NCBI GenBank assembly: GCA_041666305.1
Contig: JBAYHD010000001.1
Coordinates: forward strand, 18,149-82,148
From: Minisyncoccota bacterium
GTDB taxonomy: Bacteria; Patescibacteriota; Minisyncoccia; Phycocordibacterales; Phycocordibacteraceae
DNA length: 64,000 nt
Direction of reading: 5' to 3'
Positions within the stretch are counted from its first letter, which is position 1; every line of letters begins with the position of its first letter. Both the position numbers and the translations under genes were made by a program. The notes under the pieces are model-generated. The model searched no databases. It saw only the letters and a program-made list of their open reading frames with translations, and had not been told where the DNA came from. Positions 12,835 to 61,817 of this stretch are shown piece by piece.

Positions 12835-13440
12835 ATGTCTCTCTTCATCTCAAACCTCATCGGCGGCGGCGCTGCAGGCAGTGTAGCGCTCCTCACGCTC
12901 ATCATCATTATCGGCGTGATATTGCTCGAAGACACGACGACGGTCATCGTCGGCATGCTCGCGGCCGACGGCGTTCTCGGAGTTCCCTTCGCCCTTTCTT
13001 CGCTCTACGCCGGCATCGTGATCGGCGATCTTGGACTCTATTTCCTCGGGTACCTCGCAAGCACCAACGCCCGACTCGCGCGCTACGTGGACCATGATTT
13101 TGTCGCACCTTTCCGGGCATGGCTTGAGAATCGTTTCGTGCTTACGGTCTTTTCTGCCAGGTTTATTCCCGGTTCGCGCCTCCCCACCTACACCGCAAGC
13201 GGGTTTTTTCGCTCCCCACTCTCTACTTTCATCATAACGGCAACTATCGCAACTTCCGTTTGGACGACGTTCCTTTTCACCGCTTCGTACTGGTTCGGCA
13301 ATTTGACCGCCGGATGGCTGGGGCACGCACGCTGGGGCATCGCAGGCGCATTTCTCATCGCACTATTCTTTATCGGACGGCACAATCTCCTCGCATACCG
13401 CGCTAAGAAGGACGAGATGCGTGATATCGTTCAAAAATGA
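12835..13440 (+). CDS. DedA / SNARE-associated (VTT domain) family membrane protein
   Basis: LYFLGY...FIPGSRLPTYTASGF (DedA signature region). ORF-track start 12799 is GTG; ATG at 12835 is preferred. Confidence 0.6.
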   Translation: MSLFISNLIGGGAAGSVALLTLIIIIGVILLEDTTTVIVGMLAADGVLGVPFALSSLYAGIVIGDLGLYFLGYLASTNARLARYVDHDFVAPFRAWLENRFVLTVFSARFIPGSRLPTYTASGFFRSPLSTFIITATIATSVWTTFLFTASYWFGNLTAGWLGHARWGIAGAFLIALFFIGRHNLLAYRAKKDEMRDIVQK

Positions 13441-14354
13441 GAACGAGAATAATCCGTGCGGGCGTAGCCTTGGTGCTTGCGCTTGCTGCAGGCGGTGTTG
13501 GATACACAGCTAGCAGTGGAGGAACGCAAGTCGCGAGTGTCAACGTTCCCGCACAGACAGTCTCGGCACCGGCCGCAAACTCCGTACGTGTCGTTTACAG
13601 TTTGGACCAAAAACAAAACGATAGAGAAATCATCGCGCTCATCGACGCGGCGAAGGACCATGTTTATTTCGCGATATACACCTTCACTCTTCCCTCTATT
13701 GCCGACGCGCTCGTCGCAGCGAAAAAACGCGGAGTGGATGTGCGCGGCATCGTCGATTCGGGGCAGAGCCGCGACAGCTACGGCAAACCGATTATCACGA
13801 AGCTCCTCGCCGCCGGCATCTCGGTCGTCACCGAGAAGCATGCGACCGGTAATGGCATCATGCATATCAAGACACTCGTCACCGAATCGGCGTATGCGAC
13901 CGGCAGTTATAACTGGACGAATTCTGCGACGACCATCAATGACGAAGTGCTCGAGATCGGCACCGATCCGGCACTCCGACAAGCGTATGAAAACATATTA
14001 AAGAAACTTTTGGACGCCTACGCAGGCAACACCGCGGCCGCTAACGCGGCCGCGCCTGTTTCCATCGGCACCATCGACTACACTGATGCCTCAGCGCACG
14101 TGGGCGACCTCGCATCCGTGCGCGGCACGCTCGTAAAAGCCTATACCTCGGCCTCCGGCACGGTCTTCCTCGACTTCTGCAAAAACTATAAGACCTGTCC
14201 CTTCTCGGGCGTCATCTTCGCCGACGATGCGAAGCAGTTCGACGACTTAGCAAAGCTCGCCGGCAAGACAATAACCCTCACCGGCAAGATCAGTTCGTAT
14301 CAAGGCAAGGCCGAAATCGTCCTCTCTGACCCGAGCCAACTTACTTCTCTTTAG
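13437..14354 (+). CDS. phospholipase D-like (HKD motif) domain protein, secreted/anchored
   Basis: 305 aa. N-terminal signal/anchor, HIKTLVTESAYATGSYNWTNSA (HxK(x)4D(x)6GSxN), then a C-terminal beta-rich domain ending ...KISSYQGKAEIVLSDPSQLTSL. Confidence 0.65.
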   Translation: MRTRIIRAGVALVLALAAGGVGYTASSGGTQVASVNVPAQTVSAPAANSVRVVYSLDQKQNDREIIALIDAAKDHVYFAIYTFTLPSIADALVAAKKRGVDVRGIVDSGQSRDSYGKPIITKLLAAGISVVTEKHATGNGIMHIKTLVTESAYATGSYNWTNSATTINDEVLEIGTDPALRQAYENILKKLLDAYAGNTAAANAAAPVSIGTIDYTDASAHVGDLASVRGTLVKAYTSASGTVFLDFCKNYKTCPFSGVIFADDAKQFDDLAKLAGKTITLTGKISSYQGKAEIVLSDPSQLTSL

Positions 14355-14665
14355 GCTTGTGCTTTTTCAAGATGCCGAATACGGCGCTCATGATTAACAA
14401 TCGCAACGGCATCCTTATCCGTTGCTCGAGCGATACCATCAAGAGTTTCTTTTATGTCCTCAACTCCGTTTTCAAGAGAGCCCGTTCGTTTTTCAAGTGC
14501 AGTCATTCGATACTCGACACCATCAAGTCGATTTTCAACGCCATCGAATCTGTCTTCGACTTTAGCAAACCCCGTTTGGACAGCGTCAGCCAAGTCTTGA
14601 ACGGCACTCATGACATTCGCGATGGTCGGTTCTTTAATTACTTTGGATTTCTCCACCTTTTTCAT
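14351..14665 (-). CDS. small coiled-coil protein (hypothetical), convergent cargo gene inserted at the PLD-like gene 3' end
   Basis: 104 aa. Internally repeated RFDGVENRLDGVEYRMTALEKRTGSLENGVEDIKE heptad-like motifs. Flanked by two copies of the PLD gene 3' end. Confidence 0.45.
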   Translation of the reverse strand: MKKVEKSKVIKEPTIANVMSAVQDLADAVQTGFAKVEDRFDGVENRLDGVEYRMTALEKRTGSLENGVEDIKETLDGIARATDKDAVAIVNHERRIRHLEKAQA

Positions 14666-14712: not shown

Positions 14713-14738
14713 GAAACCCCGCCTTTCGGCGGGGTTTC
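14713..14738. terminator. perfect 11-bp GC hairpin (gaaaccccgcc-tttc-ggcggggtttc) with T-tract on the minus strand, in the 5' region of the inserted coiled-coil gene
   Basis: Inverted repeat read directly. Function (terminator for convergent transcription or 5' structure) uncertain. Confidence 0.4.
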
Positions 14739-14814
14739 TCGGAGCCTTGCGGCACTTTGTGCGGTCAGTACAGCATGCACGCAGATGCGTGCAAGCATGC
14801 ATGTATGAATAGCT

Positions 14815-14888
14815 CTCACCGGCAAGATACCTCGTATCAAGGCAAGGCTGAAATCGTCCTCTCCGACCCAAGCCAGCTCTCGCATTGA
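14815..14888 (+). repeat. degenerate duplicate (~85% identity) of the PLD-like gene 3' end (14277..14354), including its own stop codon (SYQGKAEIVLSDPSQLSH*)
   Basis: Direct alignment of 14277-14354 against 14815-14888. Also preceded by a GCATGCACGC..GCGTGCAAGCATGC palindrome at 14773-14806. Confidence 0.8.
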
Positions 14889-26735: not shown

Positions 26736-26774
26736 TATCCCCATTTTGACCCGGTCGGGTCATTATTGGGATAC
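26736..26774. repeat. 39-bp imperfect-palindromic element, copy 1 (TATCCCCATTTTGACCCGGTCGGGTCATTATTGGGATAC); perfect 16-bp inner palindrome TGACCCGGTCGGGTCA
   Basis: 100% identical to 27379..27417. Flanks the wHTH/PaaX-like gene. Confidence 0.9.
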
Positions 26775-26795
26775 GTGGTTTAGTATGATTAAGCG

Positions 26796-27377
26796 ATGGG
26801 GACAGTTGAAGTGGGGGCAAAAATAAAAAGAAGAAAGAGAGATCTGCGGAGTGCAGCGCTCATCACCATCGGTTTGGCCGGGACTATCGCCGTCGCCGCC
26901 GTTGCACCAAACATGTTCCAGCTCCTCGGAAAGACCGGTCTACTTACCCGTCTTAAGTATCGCAGTAAGGGAGTACTCGCTCGATTGAAGTACAAAGGCG
27001 AGATCGAATTTGTAGAAAAGAACGGGAAGAAATATGTACGACTAACCGACAAGGGTGAAAAAATGTTGGATCTCAATCGCGAGAAATTAAATCTAACGAA
27101 CAAGAAACCGAAAAGGTGGGATCGCCGATACCGGCTGGTCATGTTCGATATACCGGAGAAACGGAACAACATCCGCAAGCTCTTACGTTTTGAGATGCGG
27201 GAGATCGGTTTCTTGCGTATACAGGACAGCGTCTGGGTCTACCCTTTTGATTGCGAAGAGTTCATCACACTCCTTAAGGCGGACTTGCGGGTTGGTAAGG
27301 ATATTCTCTACGCAGTTGTAGAAGAAATAGAAAACGACAAGTGGATCCGCAAACACTTTAATCTACCCCTTAAATAA
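26796..27377 (+). CDS. PaaX-like winged-helix regulator family protein with Cas2-like beta-alpha-beta-beta motif (paralog 1)
   Basis: 193 aa. N-terminal hydrophobic helix, wHTH-like KYKGEIEFVEKNGKKYVRLTDKGEKML, then RWDRRYRLVMFDIPEKRNNIRKLLRFEMREIGFLRIQDSVWVYPFDCE. This pattern matches PaaX (WDGxWxLVxF...R..LRxxLxxxGFgxLQxSVWV) and the Cas2 YDV...KRR...G.RVQNSVF signature. Convergent with the r-protein genes. Confidence 0.55.
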   Translation: MGTVEVGAKIKRRKRDLRSAALITIGLAGTIAVAAVAPNMFQLLGKTGLLTRLKYRSKGVLARLKYKGEIEFVEKNGKKYVRLTDKGEKMLDLNREKLNLTNKKPKRWDRRYRLVMFDIPEKRNNIRKLLRFEMREIGFLRIQDSVWVYPFDCEEFITLLKADLRVGKDILYAVVEEIENDKWIRKHFNLPLK

Positions 27378-27378
27378 C

Positions 27379-27417
27379 TATCCCCATTTTGACCCGGTCG
27401 GGTCATTATTGGGATAC
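27379..27417. repeat. 39-bp palindromic element, copy 2 (identical to 26736..26774); similarity continues ~15 bp beyond (GTGGTTT(A)GTAT)
   Basis: Direct comparison. Confidence 0.9.
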
Positions 27418-27442
27418 ATTAGTGGTTTGTATTAAAATAAAA

Positions 27443-35088: not shown

Positions 35089-35126
35089 GTTCGTTAATTC
35101 TAACGACCGTTGGAGATAACGAACAT
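35089..35126. repeat. 38-bp palindromic element GTTCGTTAATTCTAACGACCGTTGGAGATAACGAACAT (termini GTTCGTTA/TAACGAAC), copy A, 3'-flank of paralog 2
   Basis: Shares conserved termini and centre (28/38 identity) with copy B at 35745..35782. Confidence 0.75.
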
Positions 35127-35129
35127 TGG

Positions 35130-35744
35130 TTACTCTACTAGCGGGAGATTAAAATGCTTGCGGAGTTTTTCGTCGTGTTCTATCTCATCAGCGACTATAC
35201 AGAGAATACCGTGACCAAGTTTTAGATGCGTGCGCAAAAAGACAAGGAGTTTTTCACACGGATATGGATATGCCCATGCACTGTTCTGTACCTTAACGAA
35301 GCCGATTTCTCTGAGCGTCTCTCGTAATTCGTCACGCACTTCCCGTCGCCGCTCCCACACATCAAACATGATAATCCGCCACTTCTGATCCCATTTCTTC
35401 TGATTTTTAGGCCGCACTTCTTCGCGCTCTGCAAGTTCTTCGGCAATCTTCATCCCCTTCTCTGTTAGCTCTATATGAAAGCCGTTTTGCCCCTTCACTC
35501 GCCGAAATATACCCTGTTTAATCAGCTCAGAATATTTTTGACTCACGCGCCTCTTAAGACGAGGCGAAGGCCCAATGACTTTCTCTACATATTTGAGTAG
35601 TCTCACTGCGTTCGGCGCCATAACTATCAGACCTACTCCAATCGTGAGATACGCCGAGAGCAAAACAGCATTTTTAATTTTGGTGCGCTTTGTCCCGCGC
35701 TGAACCCTCTCCTCAATATTCAAGAGCCGTTTCTTTTTCTCCAT
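35130..35744 (-). CDS. PaaX-like wHTH regulator family protein with Cas2-like motif (paralog 2)
   Basis: 204 aa. GQNGFHIELTEKGMKIAEEL (wHTH wing), KKWDQKWRIIMFDVWERRREVRDELRETLREIGFVKVQNSAWAYPYPCE, C-terminal ...DEKLRKHFNLPL shared with paralog 1. Clearly homologous to 26796..27377. Confidence 0.55.
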   Translation of the reverse strand: MEKKKRLLNIEERVQRGTKRTKIKNAVLLSAYLTIGVGLIVMAPNAVRLLKYVEKVIGPSPRLKRRVSQKYSELIKQGIFRRVKGQNGFHIELTEKGMKIAEELAEREEVRPKNQKKWDQKWRIIMFDVWERRREVRDELRETLREIGFVKVQNSAWAYPYPCEKLLVFLRTHLKLGHGILCIVADEIEHDEKLRKHFNLPLVE

Positions 35745-35782
35745 GTTCGTTATTGTACACGGTCGTTGGACTTAACGAACAT
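35745..35782. repeat. 38-bp palindromic element copy B (GTTCGTTATTGTACACGGTCGTTGGACTTAACGAACAT), abutting the start codon of paralog 2
   Basis: Direct comparison with 35089..35126. Confidence 0.75.
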
Positions 35783-35890
35783 AGGATGTGTACAAATATG
35801 GGAGCGGAGCGTGGCCTCCTCTGCCCTACCCCGCCCAAAGATGCAAGAAAACAACCGGGGTCGCGAGTGATTTGCTCGCAACCCCGTATT

Positions 35891-36299: not shown

Positions 36300-36704
36300 C
36301 TACACCATTTTCACATCTATCGTCACTCCTGACGGAAGGTTGAGGTTCGTGAGGGCCTCGATGACCTTCGGCGAGGGGTTCATGATGTCGATGAGGCGCT
36401 TATGAATGCGCATCTCGAACTGTTCGCGTGCGTCTTTATGGACGAAGGTCGAACGGTTCACGGTCCAGCGCTTTATCTCGGTGGGAAGCGGAACCGGGCC
36501 CACGACGATCGCATCAAAGCGAGCGGCGGTGTCCATGATCTGCTTCACCGAGAGGTCCAATATCTTGTGCTCATAGGCACGGACGCGGATGCGGAGCTTG
36601 TGCTCCACCGGAGCCGACGCTACAGCTTTCTTCGCTGCGGCTTTCGCCCGCGGCGCTTTGGGCGCCGCGACTTTCTTTGCTTTAGGTTTCGCCGCTGTTG
36701 CCAT
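36300..36704 (-). CDS. rpsJ: 30S ribosomal protein S10 (with ~30-aa Ala/Lys-rich N-terminal extension)
   Basis: KLRIRVRAYEHKILDLSVKQIMDTAARFDAIVVGPVPLPTEIKRWTVNRSTFVHKDAREQFEMRIHKRLIDI. Confidence 0.92.
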   Translation of the reverse strand: MATAAKPKAKKVAAPKAPRAKAAAKKAVASAPVEHKLRIRVRAYEHKILDLSVKQIMDTAARFDAIVVGPVPLPTEIKRWTVNRSTFVHKDAREQFEMRIHKRLIDIMNPSPKVIEALTNLNLPSGVTIDVKMV

Positions 36705-36723
36705 ATGAGTAGTAGATGAGTGC

Positions 36724-37923
<1,200 letters not shown>

Positions 37924-37966
37924 AACGGATAATTTAGGTGATTAATTCACGAATAAATATCCGACG

Positions 37967-38009
37967 CCTGCCCCGTAGCCAAGCATTCCGATGCTTGTGG
38001 TACTGGGGT
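37967..38009. repeat. imperfect long hairpin element CCTGCCCCGTAGCCAAGCATTCCGATGCTTGTGGTACTGGGGT in the tuf 5' region; second copy (with a 72-bp internal insertion) at 61621..61738
   Basis: Direct sequence comparison. Contains AAGCAT-TCCG-ATGCTT inner hairpin. Confidence 0.6.
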
Positions 38010-38183
38010 GAGTCGGAACAAACTCCAAAGCTTGCCGACTCACAAAAGCAGACAAGCCAAAGAGCGACGCCAAGATGCGTTAGGTGAAAGATAGCACAAA
38101 TGCCAGAGAAAGGTCAAGAAATCATTAGGGAAAACAAAAACGGGAGACAGAGTCTCCCGTGGTGGTGCGGCGCCGGTATCGAC

Positions 38184-38417
38184 TTACGCTTTCTTCTCGG
38201 CTTTCTTCTCTTTGGCCTTCTTTGCCTTGTTTTTCTTGACCTTGGCTTTGGCGGTCTTAGCTTTGGCAGCCGGTTTGGCGGCATCGGGCTTGGCCTTGGT
38301 GTCGGCAGCGGCGAGCATCGTCTGGCCGGACTGGTTGGTCGGCGAGGCAGCAATGGCCGGCAGCGCGAGAGCGAAACACGCAATCATCGAACAGAACAAA
38401 AGGGCTATCTTTTTCAC
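38184..38417 (-). CDS. small secreted Lys/Ala-rich protein (hypothetical)
   Basis: 77 aa, GTG start with strong SD (gaaggagg). Signal peptide MKKIALLFCSMIACFALALPAIAA, then KAKPDAAKPAAKAKTAKAKVKKNKAKKAKEKKAEKKA. Confidence 0.5.
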   Translation of the reverse strand: MKKIALLFCSMIACFALALPAIAASPTNQSGQTMLAAADTKAKPDAAKPAAKAKTAKAKVKKNKAKKAKEKKAEKKA

Positions 38418-38496
38418 CTGAACCTCCTTCGGAAACCCAAGGATATGGGTGCTTCTGACACTACTCCCCTTTTATGTATTGTAAAGAACCCAACGT

Positions 38497-38565
38497 GCAC
38501 AACAGCCGCCCTCCGGGCGGCTGTTGTGCCGAAAGTTAGGACACCCGGTGTCCTAACTTTTTACT
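38497..38565. terminator. two tandem perfect hairpins (gcacaacagccgccc-tcc-gggcggctgttgtgc; aagttaggacac-ccgg-gtgtcctaactt+tttt)
   Basis: Inverted repeats read directly. The second has a + strand T-tract. Confidence 0.45.
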
Positions 38566-38602
38566 TGCGAGATGCGATGATGTCGGCGGCAACGTTGTTC
38601 GG

Positions 38603-38750
38603 TGGTGTGCAACACCAGGTGTTGAACAAAATTATTTGCGGGATGCGATGATGTCGGCCGCGACGTTGGTGGGGACCACGTCGTAGTGATTGAACTCCAT
38701 CGTCATACTGCCGCGGCCTTCGGTCATGGAGCGAAGCGTGGTGGCGTAGA
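38603..38750 (-). repeat. degenerate duplicate (~80% identity) of the fusA 3' end plus its terminator hairpin (original 39200..39350); includes an in-frame remnant of the last ~39 codons and stop; an additional nested partial copy at 38567..38602
   Basis: Direct alignment: ...gtgtgcaacaccaggtgttgaacaaaattatttgcggg(a/a)(t/g)gcgatgatgtc... occurs at both loci. Confidence 0.8.
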
Positions 38751-38785
38751 AAGTCCGCTTTCTTGACGTGATATTATAAAGTTCA

Positions 38786-39145
38786 ATGAATATCCTCATC
38801 GCAGTTCTCGGACTGTTTGCAATCGATTACTATGGGTTGCGTTCATATTTGAGTCAGCGTGGCAAACCTACGGAAGGTTTAACAAAAAATATCTTACTAG
38901 CCTATAAAGACACCGCCGCCTGCGGGATTGCAGTTTTGCTTATCTCACTACCATTCTTCCTCGTTGATACTGGTGCCCCACGACCCTATGCCGAGCTGCT
39001 TTCGATGGCTCTTTGGGGTGCGGGATTCGTCCTACCTCTACCCTTCTTCATAAAAAAGAGAGTTAATATTCCTTGGTTGACTGCGATTGGTTTTATCTTT
39101 GGTCCATTGGTTTTTATTTTGCCTGCACTGTACGCAACCTTTTAA
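38786..39145 (+). CDS. small 3-4-TM membrane protein (hypothetical), convergent cargo between fusA and its duplicated 3' end
   Basis: 119 aa. [26 protein letters not shown]...[37 protein letters not shown]. Confidence 0.45.
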
Positions 39146-39229
39146 ACAACTGCAGCAAACTCAAACGGAAAGCGGCCGCCCTCTCGGGTGGCCGTTGTAC
39201 TGGTGTGCAACACCAGGTGTTGAACAAAA

Positions 39230-41377
39230 TTATTTGCGGGAGGCGATGATGTCCGCGGCCACATTAGTAGGAACTACATCGTAGTGGTCAAACTCCATCG
39301 TCATCGAGCCGCGGCCTTCGGTCATGGAGCGGAGAGTGGTGGTGTAGCCGAACATTTCGGAAAGCGGAACTTTCGCCTTCACGACTTTGTTGAGACCTCG
39401 TTCTTCCATTCCCTCGATTTGTCCGCGTTTGCCGGAGAGATTACCCGTGATGTCGCCCATGAATTGGTCCGGAATAATGACTTCCACTCGCATAATCGGC
39501 TCAAGGATGACGGCCTTTGCTTTGCTTGCCGCTTCTTGAAATGCCATGGATGCCGCGATTTTGAAAGCGATTTCTGAGGAGTCCACATCGTGGTATGAGC
39601 CGTCGTAAAGGTCGACTGAGATATCCACCATCGGGAAGCCGGCGAGGAAGCCTCGCGCCATGGCCTCGCGGAGACCTTTCTCGATTGGCGAGATGAATTC
39701 CTGAGGAATGACGCCGCCTTTGATGTTATTGATGAATTCGAAATGGTCTTCGCGCGTAATATTTTTCGCGACCTTCTTCTCCGAATCTACCGGTTCCATC
39801 TTCTTCATCTTGATCTTCACATGACCGTACTGGCCGCGGCCGCCGGTCTGCTTGATGTACTTCCCTTCCGCTTCCGAAGAACCCATAATCGTTTCGCGAT
39901 ATGCCACCTGCGGCTTTCCCACATCCGCAACGACGTTGAACTCGCGCTTCATGCGGTCCACGAGGATTTCGAGGTGCAATTCGCCCATGCCGGAAATAAT
40001 CGTTTCATTCGTCTCTTCGTCGGTCTTGATGCGGAACGTCGGGTCTTCGTCGGAAAGTTTGCGGAGCGCAATGCCCATTTTCTCCTGGTCGGCTTTGGTC
40101 TTGGGCTCGATGCGGAGCGACACCACCGGTTCAGGGAATTTAATTTCCTCGAGCACGATAGGATTTGCCTCATCACAGAGCGTGTGCGAAGTTTTCGTAT
40201 CTTTGAGACCCACTGCGGCCGCGATTTCTCCGGTAAACACCTGTGCGACTTCTTCGCGCTTGTCGGCTTGCAAGCGAACGATGCGGCCGACGCGTTCCTT
40301 GGAACCCGTCGTTGAGTTGTATACATACGAGCCGGCGGTGAGTGTGCCTGAATACACACGGAAGAAAGTCAGCGCGCCGACAAACGGATCGGTCTGGAGT
40401 TTGAATGCCATCGCGCAAAACGGTTCATCATCTGACGCATGACGCTCAACCGGTTCATTCGTCTTCGGGTTTATGCCGGTGACGGGCTTGAGGTCCAAGG
40501 GCGACGGGAGATAATCCACGACCGCATCAAGTACGAGCTGTGCGCCTTTATTCTTAAGGGCAGAACCGGTGTACACCGGGAACACTTCGTTCGCGATGAC
40601 CGCCTTGCGCAAAATCGCCTTCAACTCATCGATGTTCGGCTCTTTGCCTTCGAGATACGCACCCATCGCCGCATCGTCTTGCTCCACAATGCGCTCAATG
40701 AGTTCGGCGCGGTACTTCTTCGCGTCTTCAAGGAGATTCGCGGGAATCTCGCCCTCTACCACCTCTTCGCCCATGTTGCCGGTAAAGGTGTATGCCTTCA
40801 TCGTGAGCAGATCCACGCAACCTTCATGCTGTGCCTCTTCTCCGATAGGAATTTGCATGCGAATGGCCTTCGGCGAGAGCCGGTCCAAAATGCTTGCATA
40901 GGAACGCTCAAATGACGCTCCTATGCGATCCAATTTATTGATGAAGCAAACACGCGGCACCGCGGCTTCGTCGGCATAACGCCAGTTTGTTTCGGACTGC
41001 GGTTCCACGCCGGCCACGCCGTCAAAGACGACAACCGCACCGTCGAGCACGCGCATGGAGCGCTTCACTTCTGCCGTGAAGTCGATGTGTCCGGGGGTGT
41101 CGATGATATTGAAACGATATTTCTTGGAGATATCCTTCTTGTCTTTCTCAATCGTTTTTGTCCAGAAGCAGGTAATGGCGGCGGCGGTGATGGTGATGCC
41201 GCGCTCGCGCTCTTGTTCCATCCAGTCGGTGGTCGTTTCTCCTTCGTGCACTTCACCGATCTTGTGTTGGGAACCTGTATAGAAAAGGATGCGCTCGCTG
41301 ACAGTGGTCTTGCCGGCGTCAATGTGCGCAATGATGCCGAAGTTCCTGACCTTCTCGAGTGGATAGTCTCTGTTCAT
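39230..41377 (-). CDS. fusA: elongation factor G
   Basis: 715 aa. NFGIIAHIDAGKTTVSERILFYTG... Confidence 0.97.
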   Translation of the reverse strand: MNRDYPLEKVRNFGIIAHIDAGKTTVSERILFYTGSQHKIGEVHEGETTTDWMEQERERGITITAAAITCFWTKTIEKDKKDISKKYRFNIIDTPGHIDFTAEVKRSMRVLDGAVVVFDGVAGVEPQSETNWRYADEAAVPRVCFINKLDRIGASFERSYASILDRLSPKAIRMQIPIGEEAQHEGCVDLLTMKAYTFTGNMGEEVVEGEIPANLLEDAKKYRAELIERIVEQDDAAMGAYLEGKEPNIDELKAILRKAVIANEVFPVYTGSALKNKGAQLVLDAVVDYLPSPLDLKPVTGINPKTNEPVERHASDDEPFCAMAFKLQTDPFVGALTFFRVYSGTLTAGSYVYNSTTGSKERVGRIVRLQADKREEVAQVFTGEIAAAVGLKDTKTSHTLCDEANPIVLEEIKFPEPVVSLRIEPKTKADQEKMGIALRKLSDEDPTFRIKTDEETNETIISGMGELHLEILVDRMKREFNVVADVGKPQVAYRETIMGSSEAEGKYIKQTGGRGQYGHVKIKMKKMEPVDSEKKVAKNITREDHFEFINNIKGGVIPQEFISPIEKGLREAMARGFLAGFPMVDISVDLYDGSYHDVDSSEIAFKIAASMAFQEAASKAKAVILEPIMRVEVIIPDQFMGDITGNLSGKRGQIEGMEERGLNKVVKAKVPLSEMFGYTTTLRSMTEGRGSMTMEFDHYDVVPTNVAADIIASRK

Positions 41378-41487
41378 ATGTTAGTAGTAAGCAGTTGCAG
41401 TGAGCAGGAGCAGTAAGTGGTAAAAAGAAAACGCGCGAGGGCGTTAAGTGAAGAATAGCTGAAATGCAGGAAAATGCAAAGAGGCAG

Positions 41488-41679
41488 CTAGCCCATTAAG
41501 AAACAAACTGCACCTACTACAAGTATAATCGGGATATAAAATACAATCTCTAACCCTCCGCCTAAACCTAAATCGTTGATAAAATAGCCACCACCTGGAA
41601 TTACAAAACCAATTAGGACGTAGAGAGAAACGATTAGCAACAGAAAAGCGCCGAATATTTTCAATCCTGACCATTTCAT
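41488..41679 (-). CDS. tiny 2-TM membrane protein (hypothetical) between rpsG and fusA
   Basis: 63 aa, MKWSGLKIFGAFLLLIVSLYVLIGFVIPGGGYFINDLGLGGGLEIVFYIPIILVVGAVCFLMG. Confidence 0.35.
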   Translation of the reverse strand: MKWSGLKIFGAFLLLIVSLYVLIGFVIPGGGYFINDLGLGGGLEIVFYIPIILVVGAVCFLMG

Positions 41680-60597: not shown

Positions 60598-60679
60598 GAG
60601 TAGGACTACCTTACCACGCCTTGCTTAAACGCGCAAGTGTCGCAGAATGAAGTGCGCACAATATTGTTATACTTTCCCT

Positions 60680-61615
60680 ATGAATGCTGAGGCCGCAAAA
60701 CGCCAATTCCTTGAATACATAGAGATAGAGCGCGGGCGCGCGGTGAAGACTATCGAGAATTACGACCGCTACCTCACTCGCTTTTTCGAACAGATGAAAA
60801 TCAAGAATGTCGGGGACATCACCGAACAGAACGTCCGCGAATTCCGCCTCTGGCTCAACCGTCAGAAAGGCACGACGCACCCCAAAGGGGCCCCTTCGGG
60901 GATGAAGCGTCGCACCCAGAACTACTACATGATTGCGCTTCGCGCATTTCTCAAATTCCTCCGCAAACGCGATATCGAAGCCATTTCACCGGAAAAGATA
61001 GAGCTCGCGAAGCTCCCCGAACGCCAACTTGATCTCATCACGCCCGCGGAACTGGAACGGCTTATGAAAGCGCCCGGCGAAGCCTACAAGAAAGAGCCCG
61101 ACGAGGATAAAAAGCTCCATTACCTGCGCGACAGCGCCATTCTTGAACTACTCTTCTCCACTGGCCTGCGCGTGTCCGAGCTCTGTGCGCTTAACTCTGA
61201 TATGGACCTATCGCGCGATGAATTATCAGTACGAGGAAAAGGCGAGAAAGTGCGCGTTGTATTCCTCTCCCCTGCCGCGAAAGAAGCCGTGCGCGATTAT
61301 TTGAAAGTCCGCAAAGATATGGAGGAAGCATTATTCGTGGACGGCCGGCCGAACGCGCCTCATCGCATAACTCCGCGCGACATCCAGCGACACTTAAAGG
61401 GCTACGTCGCCCGCGCCGGCATCACGAACGTCGTGACGCCTCACACGCTCCGCCACGCCTTCGCCACCGACTTGTTATCGAATGGTGCGGACATCCGCAG
61501 TGTCCAACAGCTCCTCGGCCACGCCTCCATCAACACCACGCAAATTTACACGCACATTACGGATAGTCATTTGCGAGAAATACACAAGAAGTTCCATGGT
61601 CGGAATCGTAGTTAG
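60680..61615 (+). CDS. xerC: tyrosine recombinase XerC/XerD-like
   Basis: Core-binding N-domain, then C-terminal HTLRHAFATDLLSNGADIRSVQQLLGHASINTTQIYTHI (R..H.R..Y catalytic residues). ATG 60680 preferred over 60647. Carries a GC-palindrome insertion at 60880..60901 (HPKGAPSGMK). Confidence 0.85.
   Translation: MNAEAAKRQFLEYIEIERGRAVKTIENYDRYLTRFFEQMKIKNVGDITEQNVREFRLWLNRQKGTTHPKGAPSGMKRRTQNYYMIALRAFLKFLRKRDIEAISPEKIELAKLPERQLDLITPAELERLMKAPGEAYKKEPDEDKKLHYLRDSAILELLFSTGLRVSELCALNSDMDLSRDELSVRGKGEKVRVVFLSPAAKEAVRDYLKVRKDMEEALFVDGRPNAPHRITPRDIQRHLKGYVARAGITNVVTPHTLRHAFATDLLSNGADIRSVQQLLGHASINTTQIYTHITDSHLREIHKKFHGRNRS
60880..60901. repeat. GC-rich palindromic element copy (CCCCAAAGGGGCCCCTTCGGGG) embedded in-frame in xerC-like gene
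   Basis: Same motif as 52737..52758 and 53079..53102. Confidence 0.7.
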
Positions 61616-61620
61616 CGAGA

Positions 61621-61738
61621 CCTGCCCCGTAAGCAAAGCTTTCTCTCTGCGCTCATTCGGGAATATTGAAGTCAGACTTCAATTTCTCCTCATTCGCTTG
61701 ATAGTAGCCAAGCATTCTGATGCTTGTGGTACCGGGGT
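61621..61738. repeat. second copy of the CCTGCCCCGTA...GTAGCCAAGCATTCTGATGCTTGTGGTACCGGGGT element (see 37967..38009) split by a 72-bp insert containing a TTGAAGTC-A-GACTTCAA palindrome
   Basis: Direct comparison. Confidence 0.55.
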
Positions 61739-61817
61739 CCACAAAAAATTCCACGGGAAACATCGTGGCTGAATAAAAAGAACGCGGCGCTCTCGTGAGC
61801 GCCGCAGGTGGTTTGGG

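Follow-up and report, generated by a model that had tools for sequence, protein, structure and literature searches.

We analysed a 64,000-nucleotide (nt) stretch of contig JBAYHD010000001.1 (assembly GCA_041666305.1), referred to here as the window, and within it the spacer that separates fusA, the gene for EF-G, from tuf. The nearest relatives of this fusA locus are metagenome-assembled genomes (MAGs) of Kaiserbacteria, and the window itself derives from a MAG of Candidatus Kaiserbacteria / Paceibacterota. Its minus-strand genes here follow the order rpsL, rpsG, a small open reading frame (ORF), fusA, a 1306-nt spacer, tuf and rpsJ. fusA (39230..41377, minus strand) is intact at 715 amino acids (aa), with the Pfam domains GTP_EFTU, EFG_IV and EFG_C on the called gene, and tuf occupies 36724..37923 (minus strand). 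The spacer between them holds an array in which the fusA end now in use is followed by two displaced copies of fusA ends.

Read along the minus strand, the array begins with tail A, the end in use, which comprises the last 38 fusA codons and the stop (39230-39346, stop codon at 39230-39232). Directly after the live stop stands the first copy of a 29-nt motif that can form a short hairpin (TTTTGTTCAACACCTGGTGTTGCACACCA in the sense orientation; 39201..39229, minus strand), and a G+C-rich, terminator-like hairpin (GGCCACCCGAGAGGGCGGCC; 39173..39194, minus strand) then lies between fusA and a convergent ORF for a predicted membrane protein of 119 aa with about four hydrophobic segments (ORF119; 38786..39145, plus strand; NCBI locus WCT41_00400). 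An A+T-rich spacer of 36 nt (38750..38785, no strand assigned, G+C 0.33) separates the start of ORF119 from tail B and includes a small hairpin (GAAAGCGGACTTTC, minus strand) that touches the left boundary of that tail. Tail B is a displaced copy of fusA codons -38 to stop (38632..38749, minus strand). It is followed by a second copy of the motif, identical to the first (38603..38631, minus strand), and by tail C, a displaced copy of codons -13 to stop with a native-type end (38561..38602, minus strand). Two perfect tandem hairpins at 38532-38560 and 38497-38529 (minus strand) represent the original fusA terminator region; together (38497..38560) they fold at -50.8 kcal/mol, with z = -7.6.

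The coordinates and geometry of the fusA end, the hairpin, the convergent membrane-protein ORF, the copies and the tandem hairpins, as given by the first-pass annotation of this DNA, hold on re-examination, with some changes of measure. The direct repeat formed by 38603-38749 and 39201-39347 is 147 nt long with 87% identity, where about 80% had been stated for the long copy, and the nested copy reported as 36 bp is real, with a length of 42 nt at 38561-38602. Over its first 41 nt, which take in the last three codons, the stop codon and the 29 nt beyond it, the 147-nt repeat shows 100% identity. Tail C shares 86% identity with tail B, the other displaced copy, and 79% with the live end. The 29-nt motif occurs exactly twice in the 64 kb against an expectation of zero, and an exact copy also stands right behind the fusA stop of one relative (locus L111), after different last codons.

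The array region is 100% identical in a JGI contig of 56.9 kb, and an ENA MEGAHIT contig of 159 kb differs from the window by three single-nucleotide polymorphisms (SNPs) over 8148 nt, none of them inside the array. As both contigs carry the array, an assembly artefact, against which the first-pass annotation had advised checking, is very unlikely as its source. Tail B has been called as a small ORF (38632-38799, minus strand), of 31 aa by JGI and of 55 aa with a Pfam EFG_C match by ENA. This call is an annotation trap, and as a practical warning, small ORFs with an EFG_C match downstream of fusA are dead gene ends, not genes. ARAGORN found no tRNA in the 64 kb and Rfam found no known RNA family in 36500-41600 at E <= 1, and with both searches empty a tRNA or known RNA in the fusA-tuf spacer was dropped as a candidate.

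The three tails differ from one another in the manner of working genes. Between tails A and B, 19 of 114 nt are different, with 15 of these at third codon positions, and the 16 changed codons comprise 14 synonymous and two amino-acid-altering changes, including a serine encoded by TCG in one tail and AGT in the other. When 19 random changes were simulated 20,000 times, none of the sets gave two or fewer amino-acid changes, and a stop codon arose in 36%. Against each of the two other tails, tail C has the same synonymous pattern (P = 0.0001 and 0.006). The copies had been described as degenerate; they are not decayed, and since EF-G residues are kept while synonymous sites differ, the tails diverged inside working genes, all three under selection as the ends of functional fusA genes. 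The sequence comparison supports an origin of the tails in the functional fusA genes of other lineages. Alignment of the tails to relatives, suggested earlier as a way to recognise a donor, gave a flat 80-87% identity for tails A and B against 55 relatives, with none standing out, and sliding-window identity along the whole fusA gene was likewise flat, with no donor segment visible. With identities this even, neither a donor nor the resident one of tails A and B can be named.

ORF119 contrasts with this Kaiserbacteria-like background. Its G+C content of 0.444 lies within the lowest 3% of 360-nt windows, and its G+C at third codon positions (GC3) is 0.425, compared to 0.67-0.73 in fusA, tuf and ORF77, a 77-aa gene further along the spacer; tails A and B have the high GC3 typical of Kaiserbacteria. 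A search of 5.8 billion proteins returned only ORF119 itself, and it matches no Pfam family. ORF119 is thus compositionally foreign and is the cargo of the younger of two inserts.

The state of the locus before these inserts can be read from close relatives. In three loci with approximately 94% EF-G identity (L105, L107, L109), the sequence AAAGTTAGGACACTGGGTGTCCTAACTT directly follows the fusA stop, and this is the hairpin found downstream of tail C in the window. Since this hairpin stands immediately after the gene in those relatives, tail C is the native end. Beyond the hairpins, ORF77 (38184..38417, minus strand) encodes a signal peptide and a Lys/Ala-rich body and is followed by its own terminator (38140-38160, minus strand). 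Conservation of the sequence upstream of ORF77 extends to L111, L090 and L102, a positional homologue is present in L102 (the feature table lists L102, L111 and L090), and ORF77 itself had no tblastn match. Given this conserved 5' region, ORF77 is probably a resident gene of the clade rather than cargo. The original locus, as reconstructed by this comparison, would have consisted of fusA with tail C, two terminator hairpins, ORF77, the tuf leader and tuf, so that the tandem hairpins and ORF77 belong to the native locus and not to the insert. Two insertions in succession, not one, were made at the very end of fusA. Relative to the native locus, the first gain amounts to 71 nt (the motif with new last codons ahead of it, plus codons -13 to -5 in duplicate) and the second to 598 nt (a new gene end, the motif, the G+C-rich hairpin, ORF119 and the spacer).

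The tuf end of the spacer is formed by the tuf 5' leader (37924..38100, minus strand), with a conserved block at 38010-38082 and an optional 35-nt hairpin insert at 37975-38009. At the start of the leader, the block TAACGCATCTTGGCGTCGCTCTTTGGCTTGTCTGC is nearly invariant in all loci aligned (upstream regions of L001-L161), where it stands after a promoter-like TTGCRT...TATAGT and before a GAGTCGG...CCGACTC hairpin. The block had no Rfam match and showed no compensatory changes in 15 sequences; it could be a conserved regulatory leader. The 35-nt hairpin element (GTAGCCAAGCATTCYGATGCTTGTGGTACYGGGGT) is present in the window in two copies with 94% identity, the one in the tuf leader and one at 61704-61738, and among 15 relatives the tuf-leader copy is shared with the window by L159 and L144 alone. 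The element may be a small mobile hairpin that occurs in repeated copies.

The comparison covered 80 genome and 79 metagenome loci collected around fusA (L-numbered). Displaced fusA tails follow the live gene in about 16 other contigs of Kaiserbacteria/Paceibacteria, among them L002, L003, L010, L025, L091, L102, L108, L113, L117, L125, L147, L155, L161 and L162, and weakly in L140, with three remnants in L091 and two in L162. Remnant-bearing loci make up only about 10-15% of the total, while the spacer is hypervariable everywhere. The first-pass annotation had taken fusA and tuf to be normally adjacent; the junctions compared here have spacers from 114 nt to more than 6 kb across Patescibacteria, and this position, with a highly conserved gene on either side, is a hotspot of exchange in general. 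The cargo differs wholly between fusA loci and consists of unrelated genes: an MNT/HepT toxin-antitoxin pair in L002, a secreted PG_binding protein of 827 aa in L010, TrmB-type regulators in L091, a methyltransferase in L155, and orphan membrane or secreted proteins in further loci. Some inserts contain no gene at all, with lengths of about 60 nt in L003 and L025, 71 nt at fusA in the window and about 125 nt at a second gene of the window, described below. In five metagenome contigs (L091 8613-8823; L102 4247-4433; L162 114-297; L125 9246-9322; L155 3091-3251), a conserved, non-coding element of about 100-120 nt sits inside a displaced fusA tail, where it parts codon -17 from codon -16. This element contains a terminator hairpin and a hairpin of the form GAAACC..GCGAAGC..GTTTC, and wherever its two flanks can be seen, each carries a Tyr (or His) codon; the members of this junction class are related by descent.

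In the cassettes bounded by copies of the fusA end, most of which are too small to encode a recombinase, none was recognised. The 598-nt insert of the window contains only ORF119, which has no Pfam match, and Pfam searches of the cargo proteins of other loci gave no integrase. Among 143 gap ORFs searched with Pfam there was no recombinase in the top 25 families listed, which is weaker evidence. A motif screen for tyrosine or serine recombinases gave no match within 6-8 kb of fusA in any of the Patescibacteria loci. The same screen marked tyrosine-recombinase-like ORFs just past tuf in two IMG/VR contigs that are not Patescibacteria (L084 1877-3016 and L085 2237-3439); these are probably prophages beyond tuf, apparently unrelated to the fusA scars. 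A scan of IMG/VR with the tail returned only whole host fusA genes and no phage contig carrying a fusA tail alone, and the 29-nt motif is absent from that database; a phage or viral origin was dropped on these results.

The process that leaves these scars is not specific to fusA. The last 40 residues of each of the 73 window genes were compared with the 2 kb downstream, using the opposite strand as a control, and three genes scored above the control maximum of 37: fusA (184), a PLDc_2 gene (80) and an Xer-like gene (49). The live PLDc_2 gene (13437..14354, plus strand) is followed by a convergent ORF for a 104-aa coiled-coil protein (14351..14665, minus strand), a bidirectional terminator (14716-14740) and a displaced copy of its last 20 or so codons (SYQGKAEIVLSDPSQLSH followed by a stop; 14808-14878), which repeats the geometry seen at fusA and shows five differences, all synonymous, plus a different C-terminus. 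The Xer-like tyrosine recombinase gene (60647..61615; Phage_integrase, E = 1.3e-41) has a displaced tail, HKKFHGKHRG followed by a stop (61739-61771), about 125 nt past the live stop and ahead of the real terminator, with no ORF in the insert. The second copy of the 35-nt hairpin element directly adjoins this displaced tail. In relatives, a 61-nt repeat of the rpsG end with 90% identity flanks 1.5 kb in L111 (3934-5523) that encode a 220-aa secreted protein and a PaaX_M protein, a remnant of rplB (TSAPKKYSNVFIISRRKVGKSRKD followed by a stop) lies 171 nt downstream of the gene in L131 (5553-5800), and a gene for a 128-aa protein in L164 has a 50-nt repeat on both sides of a PaaX_M gene. fusA is by far the most frequent site, in data that were gathered around fusA.

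We consider the best reading of these observations to be homology-anchored recombination, at the end of fusA, with incoming DNA from relatives, to which we assign a probability of roughly 0.55. DNA from a related Kaiserbacteria lineage would be taken up carrying its own fusA 3' end together with whatever adjoins it downstream, would pair with the resident gene through the conserved 3' coding sequence, and would be joined back at its far end inside the resident tail. The incoming end would then become the working fusA end, and the resident end, from the junction to the stop, would be pushed downstream as a dead copy. A first event of this kind would have left the 13 codons of tail C and added a new gene end and the 29-nt hairpin, 71 nt in total; a second would have left the 38 codons of tail B and added 598 nt that include the A+T-rich orphan gene ORF119. 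The insert probably brought no integrase of its own; the enzymes would be those of the cell, homologous recombination acting on the DNA taken up and an illegitimate or short-homology join at the other end, a process that may be named homology-facilitated illegitimate recombination or Campbell-type insertion-duplication. Every surviving product would keep a complete reading frame owing to selection for an intact essential gene. Joins that fall past the resident stop would leave no remnant and only replace the spacer, which would explain why the spacer is hypervariable while remnants are found in only about 10-15% of loci.

Several observations favour recombination by the cell's own machinery: the lack of a recombinase in cis, gene-less inserts of about 60-125 nt, the scatter of left boundaries, the involvement of unrelated genes (PLDc_2 and Xer-like genes in the window; rpsG, rplB and the gene for the 128-aa protein in relatives), and the Kaiserbacteria-like character of all tails. 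The inserts examined start inside or right after the conserved fusA tail, giving a homologous anchor on one side, and the left boundaries of the remnants lie at codons -10, -11, -13, -17, -19, -26, -29, -31 and -37/-38. The three best-documented classes of junction (after -38, after -17 and, on the right-hand side, at -4) coincide with the 3' edges of the blocks in which nucleotide conservation is highest, ATGTTCGGCTAC, TTCGACCACTAC and GACATCATCGC. The part of the first-pass annotation that saw foreign DNA at a reconstituted fusA 3' end therefore stands, and of the two explanations it offered, recombination anchored on fusA homology is favoured over a self-contained integrating element.

The fine structure of the breakpoints weighs against this reading. 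In six loci (L010, L091, L108, L117, L125 and L161) there is little or no difference between the live and the displaced tail over the stretch that runs from the remnant's left end to codon -5 (...GAC ATC ATC GC), after which the last four codons are fully recoded and the sequence beyond is unrelated (in L161, AGC AGA AAG TGA against TCC CGT AAA TAA). This right-hand breakpoint at codon -4 is repeated in at least seven loci, and a breakpoint so sharp and so often repeated is more readily explained by site-specific cutting or crossover, unless the interior was evened out by later gene conversion. The window is a mirror image of this pattern, as its tails A and B are diverged from codon -38 to -4 and identical from -3 to +29; the 41 identical nt adjoin 102 nt upstream that differ by 16%, an arrangement with a likelihood of about 0.001 under uniform divergence, and the block has the look of a recombination core or of a conserved site. 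Three loci whose cargo is unrelated (the window, L010 and L091) share the left boundary at -37/-38, and hairpins frequently adjoin remnant boundaries. No donor sequence was found. The 41-nt block and the recurrent codon -4 breakpoint are poorly explained by homology-anchored recombination, although gene conversion between the repeats could have homogenised their interiors and the motif could be conserved for another function; in L091 the edges are diverged and the interior is identical, as expected from gene conversion between repeats.

The last fusA codons also vary more than the rest. In 75 distinct Kaiserbacteria-like tails, Ser -3 is encoded by AGY in 33 and by TCN in 37, and Arg -2 by AGR in 22, whereas in the same tails Ser -43 and -32 are encoded by TCN only and Arg -33 and -27 by CGN only, such that the final codons switch codon family far more often than the rest of the gene. 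This hypervariability was set aside as proof of recombination, since relaxed constraint at the C-terminus could contribute.

A serious, though less likely, rival explanation is that the cassettes are non-autonomous and are moved by a site-specific recombinase acting in trans, with the fusA end and its hairpin as the attachment site. Each cassette would carry a mimic of the site, and successive integrations would stack into an array. This would account for a perfect 41-nt block within otherwise diverged repeats, for two stacked cassettes that share the same identical 41-nt left end, for the breakpoints repeated at codon -4 and at -37/-38 and for the hairpins beside the junctions, and the exact 29-nt motif after the remnant-free fusA of L111 could be an empty site. 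The Xer-like tyrosine recombinase of the window would be an available enzyme, and nothing ties it to the site. A fixed attachment site is difficult to reconcile with cassette ends that are unrelated between loci, with left boundaries spread over 28 codons and with the same scar at five other unrelated genes of unrelated sequence, and the screens near fusA and of IMG/VR yielded neither a recombinase nor the motif in a phage. The 29-nt imperfect palindrome was also considered as a dif/Xer site and dropped, as the locus lacks the turning point in GC skew that would mark it as one; its arms, as we read them, do not match the usual dif core.

More doubtful is a dedicated and hitherto undescribed cassette-insertion system in Kaiserbacteria, perhaps in Patescibacteria more widely, that acts at last codons beside terminator hairpins with fusA as its main hotspot. 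Equally tentative is the specific form in which small recombinase-less cassettes, each consisting of a recoded gene end and a copy of the target preceding it, are put in at codon -4 by a factor supplied in trans. Palindrome-flanked single-gene units encoding PaaX_M/Cas2-like proteins, which are differently placed between genomes, are a speculative candidate for such a factor. As an observation in their own right, these PaaX_M (Cas2-like) single genes, whose products have an N-terminal membrane segment, lie at 26736-27432 and 35094-35785 in the window, at 4775-5455 in L111 and at 4552-5232 in L164, and always have on both sides a palindrome of about 40 nt (TGTTCnnT..ACGRYCGT..AnnGAACA) with outer arms that vary between units. 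One of the window units is inside the ribosomal-protein operon, between rplE and rpsN, and those in L111 (in the rpsG-fusA gap) and L164 (by the gene for the 128-aa protein) are both bounded by displaced gene tails. These units may be mobile, or they may be autoregulated genes that often serve as cargo.

That the array is the remnant of an element or prophage bearing its own integrase, of the type of e14 or phage 21 in icd, from which the integrase and most of the cargo were later deleted, is quite improbable. Direct gene-end repeats of 147 nt do flank the insert, fusA is reconstituted at 715 aa, and both the geometry and the synonymous divergence match e14 and phage 21 at icd. Against this, none of about 16 independent fusA loci has an integrase or phage gene between the repeats, inserts are as small as about 60-70 nt, the left boundaries vary (even with -37/-38 and the right-hand codon -4 breakpoint recurring), and the IMG/VR scan gave only whole host genes. 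That the fusA end was duplicated in tandem on the spot, through slippage or unequal exchange, and then decayed neutrally can hardly be credited, and neither can an assembly artefact: direct repeats of short period (71 and 598 nt) could arise by slippage, but the divergence is almost purely synonymous where random mutation would often have created stop codons, the repeats enclose DNA of foreign composition, the array is the same in two assemblies that differ in origin (one has SNPs elsewhere), and analogous arrays are present in many other assemblies.

Among known systems, e14 and phage 21 at Escherichia coli icd, which use their own integrase and one fixed crossover site, resemble the present case in that an incoming replacement 3' end of a conserved gene differs mainly synonymously and the original end survives, displaced beyond the insert, with the gene intact. 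They differ in that here there is no integrase between the repeats, the inserts are about 60-600 nt, boundaries vary and generations are stacked. The closest mechanism is homology-facilitated illegitimate recombination or insertion-duplication, known from natural transformation of Acinetobacter, Streptococcus pneumoniae and Pseudomonas stutzeri, which would here be met as natural scars in an uncultured, genome-reduced lineage. In that process, as in the one proposed for fusA, a single homologous anchor in a conserved gene brings in adjacent foreign DNA, long homology is not required at the other end, no dedicated recombinase is needed and junctions vary. The former is known from laboratory selections, usually with deletion of recipient DNA, whereas these scars are natural and recurrent and keep the duplicated gene end; the codon -4 breakpoint and the 41-nt block are not predicted by it.

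Staphylococcal cassette chromosome (SCC) elements such as SCCmec and SCC-like elements at rlmH (orfX), and the cis-mobilizable elements (CIME) and integrative and conjugative elements (ICE) at Streptococcus thermophilus fda, use short fixed sites and known Ccr or Int enzymes. They share with the fusA arrays tandem arrangement at a conserved gene 3' end, cassettes bounded by gene-end repeats and members without a recombinase (served in trans in the SCC and CIME cases), but at fusA no enzyme was identified, repeats range from 10 to 38 codons and no site sequence is common across loci. Partial tRNA repeats mark hypervariable islands, for example Prochlorococcus islands and tycheposons, and likewise combine stacked partial gene 3' ends with repeated gene gain at a hotspot of a streamlined genome; the target here, unlike theirs, is protein-coding, so its frame must be kept, and no integrase-bearing element was seen. 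Integrative mobile elements exploiting Xer (IMEX) act at dif; cassettes moved in trans at fusA would be akin to these, to the recombinase-less SCC-like cassettes at rlmH and to the CIME at fda. In integrons, intI lies beside attI and cassettes end in attC sites of about 57-141 nt with R''/R' core sites. An integron was rejected here, as there is no adjacent integrase, the hairpin is about 21-29 nt and the cassettes carry gene-end copies rather than attC sites; integrons, IS200/IS605 insertion sequences and miniature inverted-repeat transposable elements were all dropped, the cassettes having no common ends, terminal inverted repeats or attC-sized hairpins. A full-text literature search returned no description of cassettes at the fusA end or of such scars in Patescibacteria.

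In total, ordinary recombination is the probable mechanism, and the chance that a dedicated system is at work is not negligible; the recurrent codon -4 breakpoint provides a concrete, testable site at which to seek recombination activity. Patescibacteria have tiny genomes with few recognisable mobile elements. The scars described here are a direct, datable record of gene gain in them, in which each displaced tail is the fossil of an earlier gene end or of incoming DNA, and with them the fusA-tuf spacer can be used as a natural reporter with which to follow how genes flow in uncultured lineages. They indicate that the most conserved genes offer, at their ends, points of entry for foreign genes, and that the last codons of an essential gene are replaced by incoming DNA while the gene remains unbroken.

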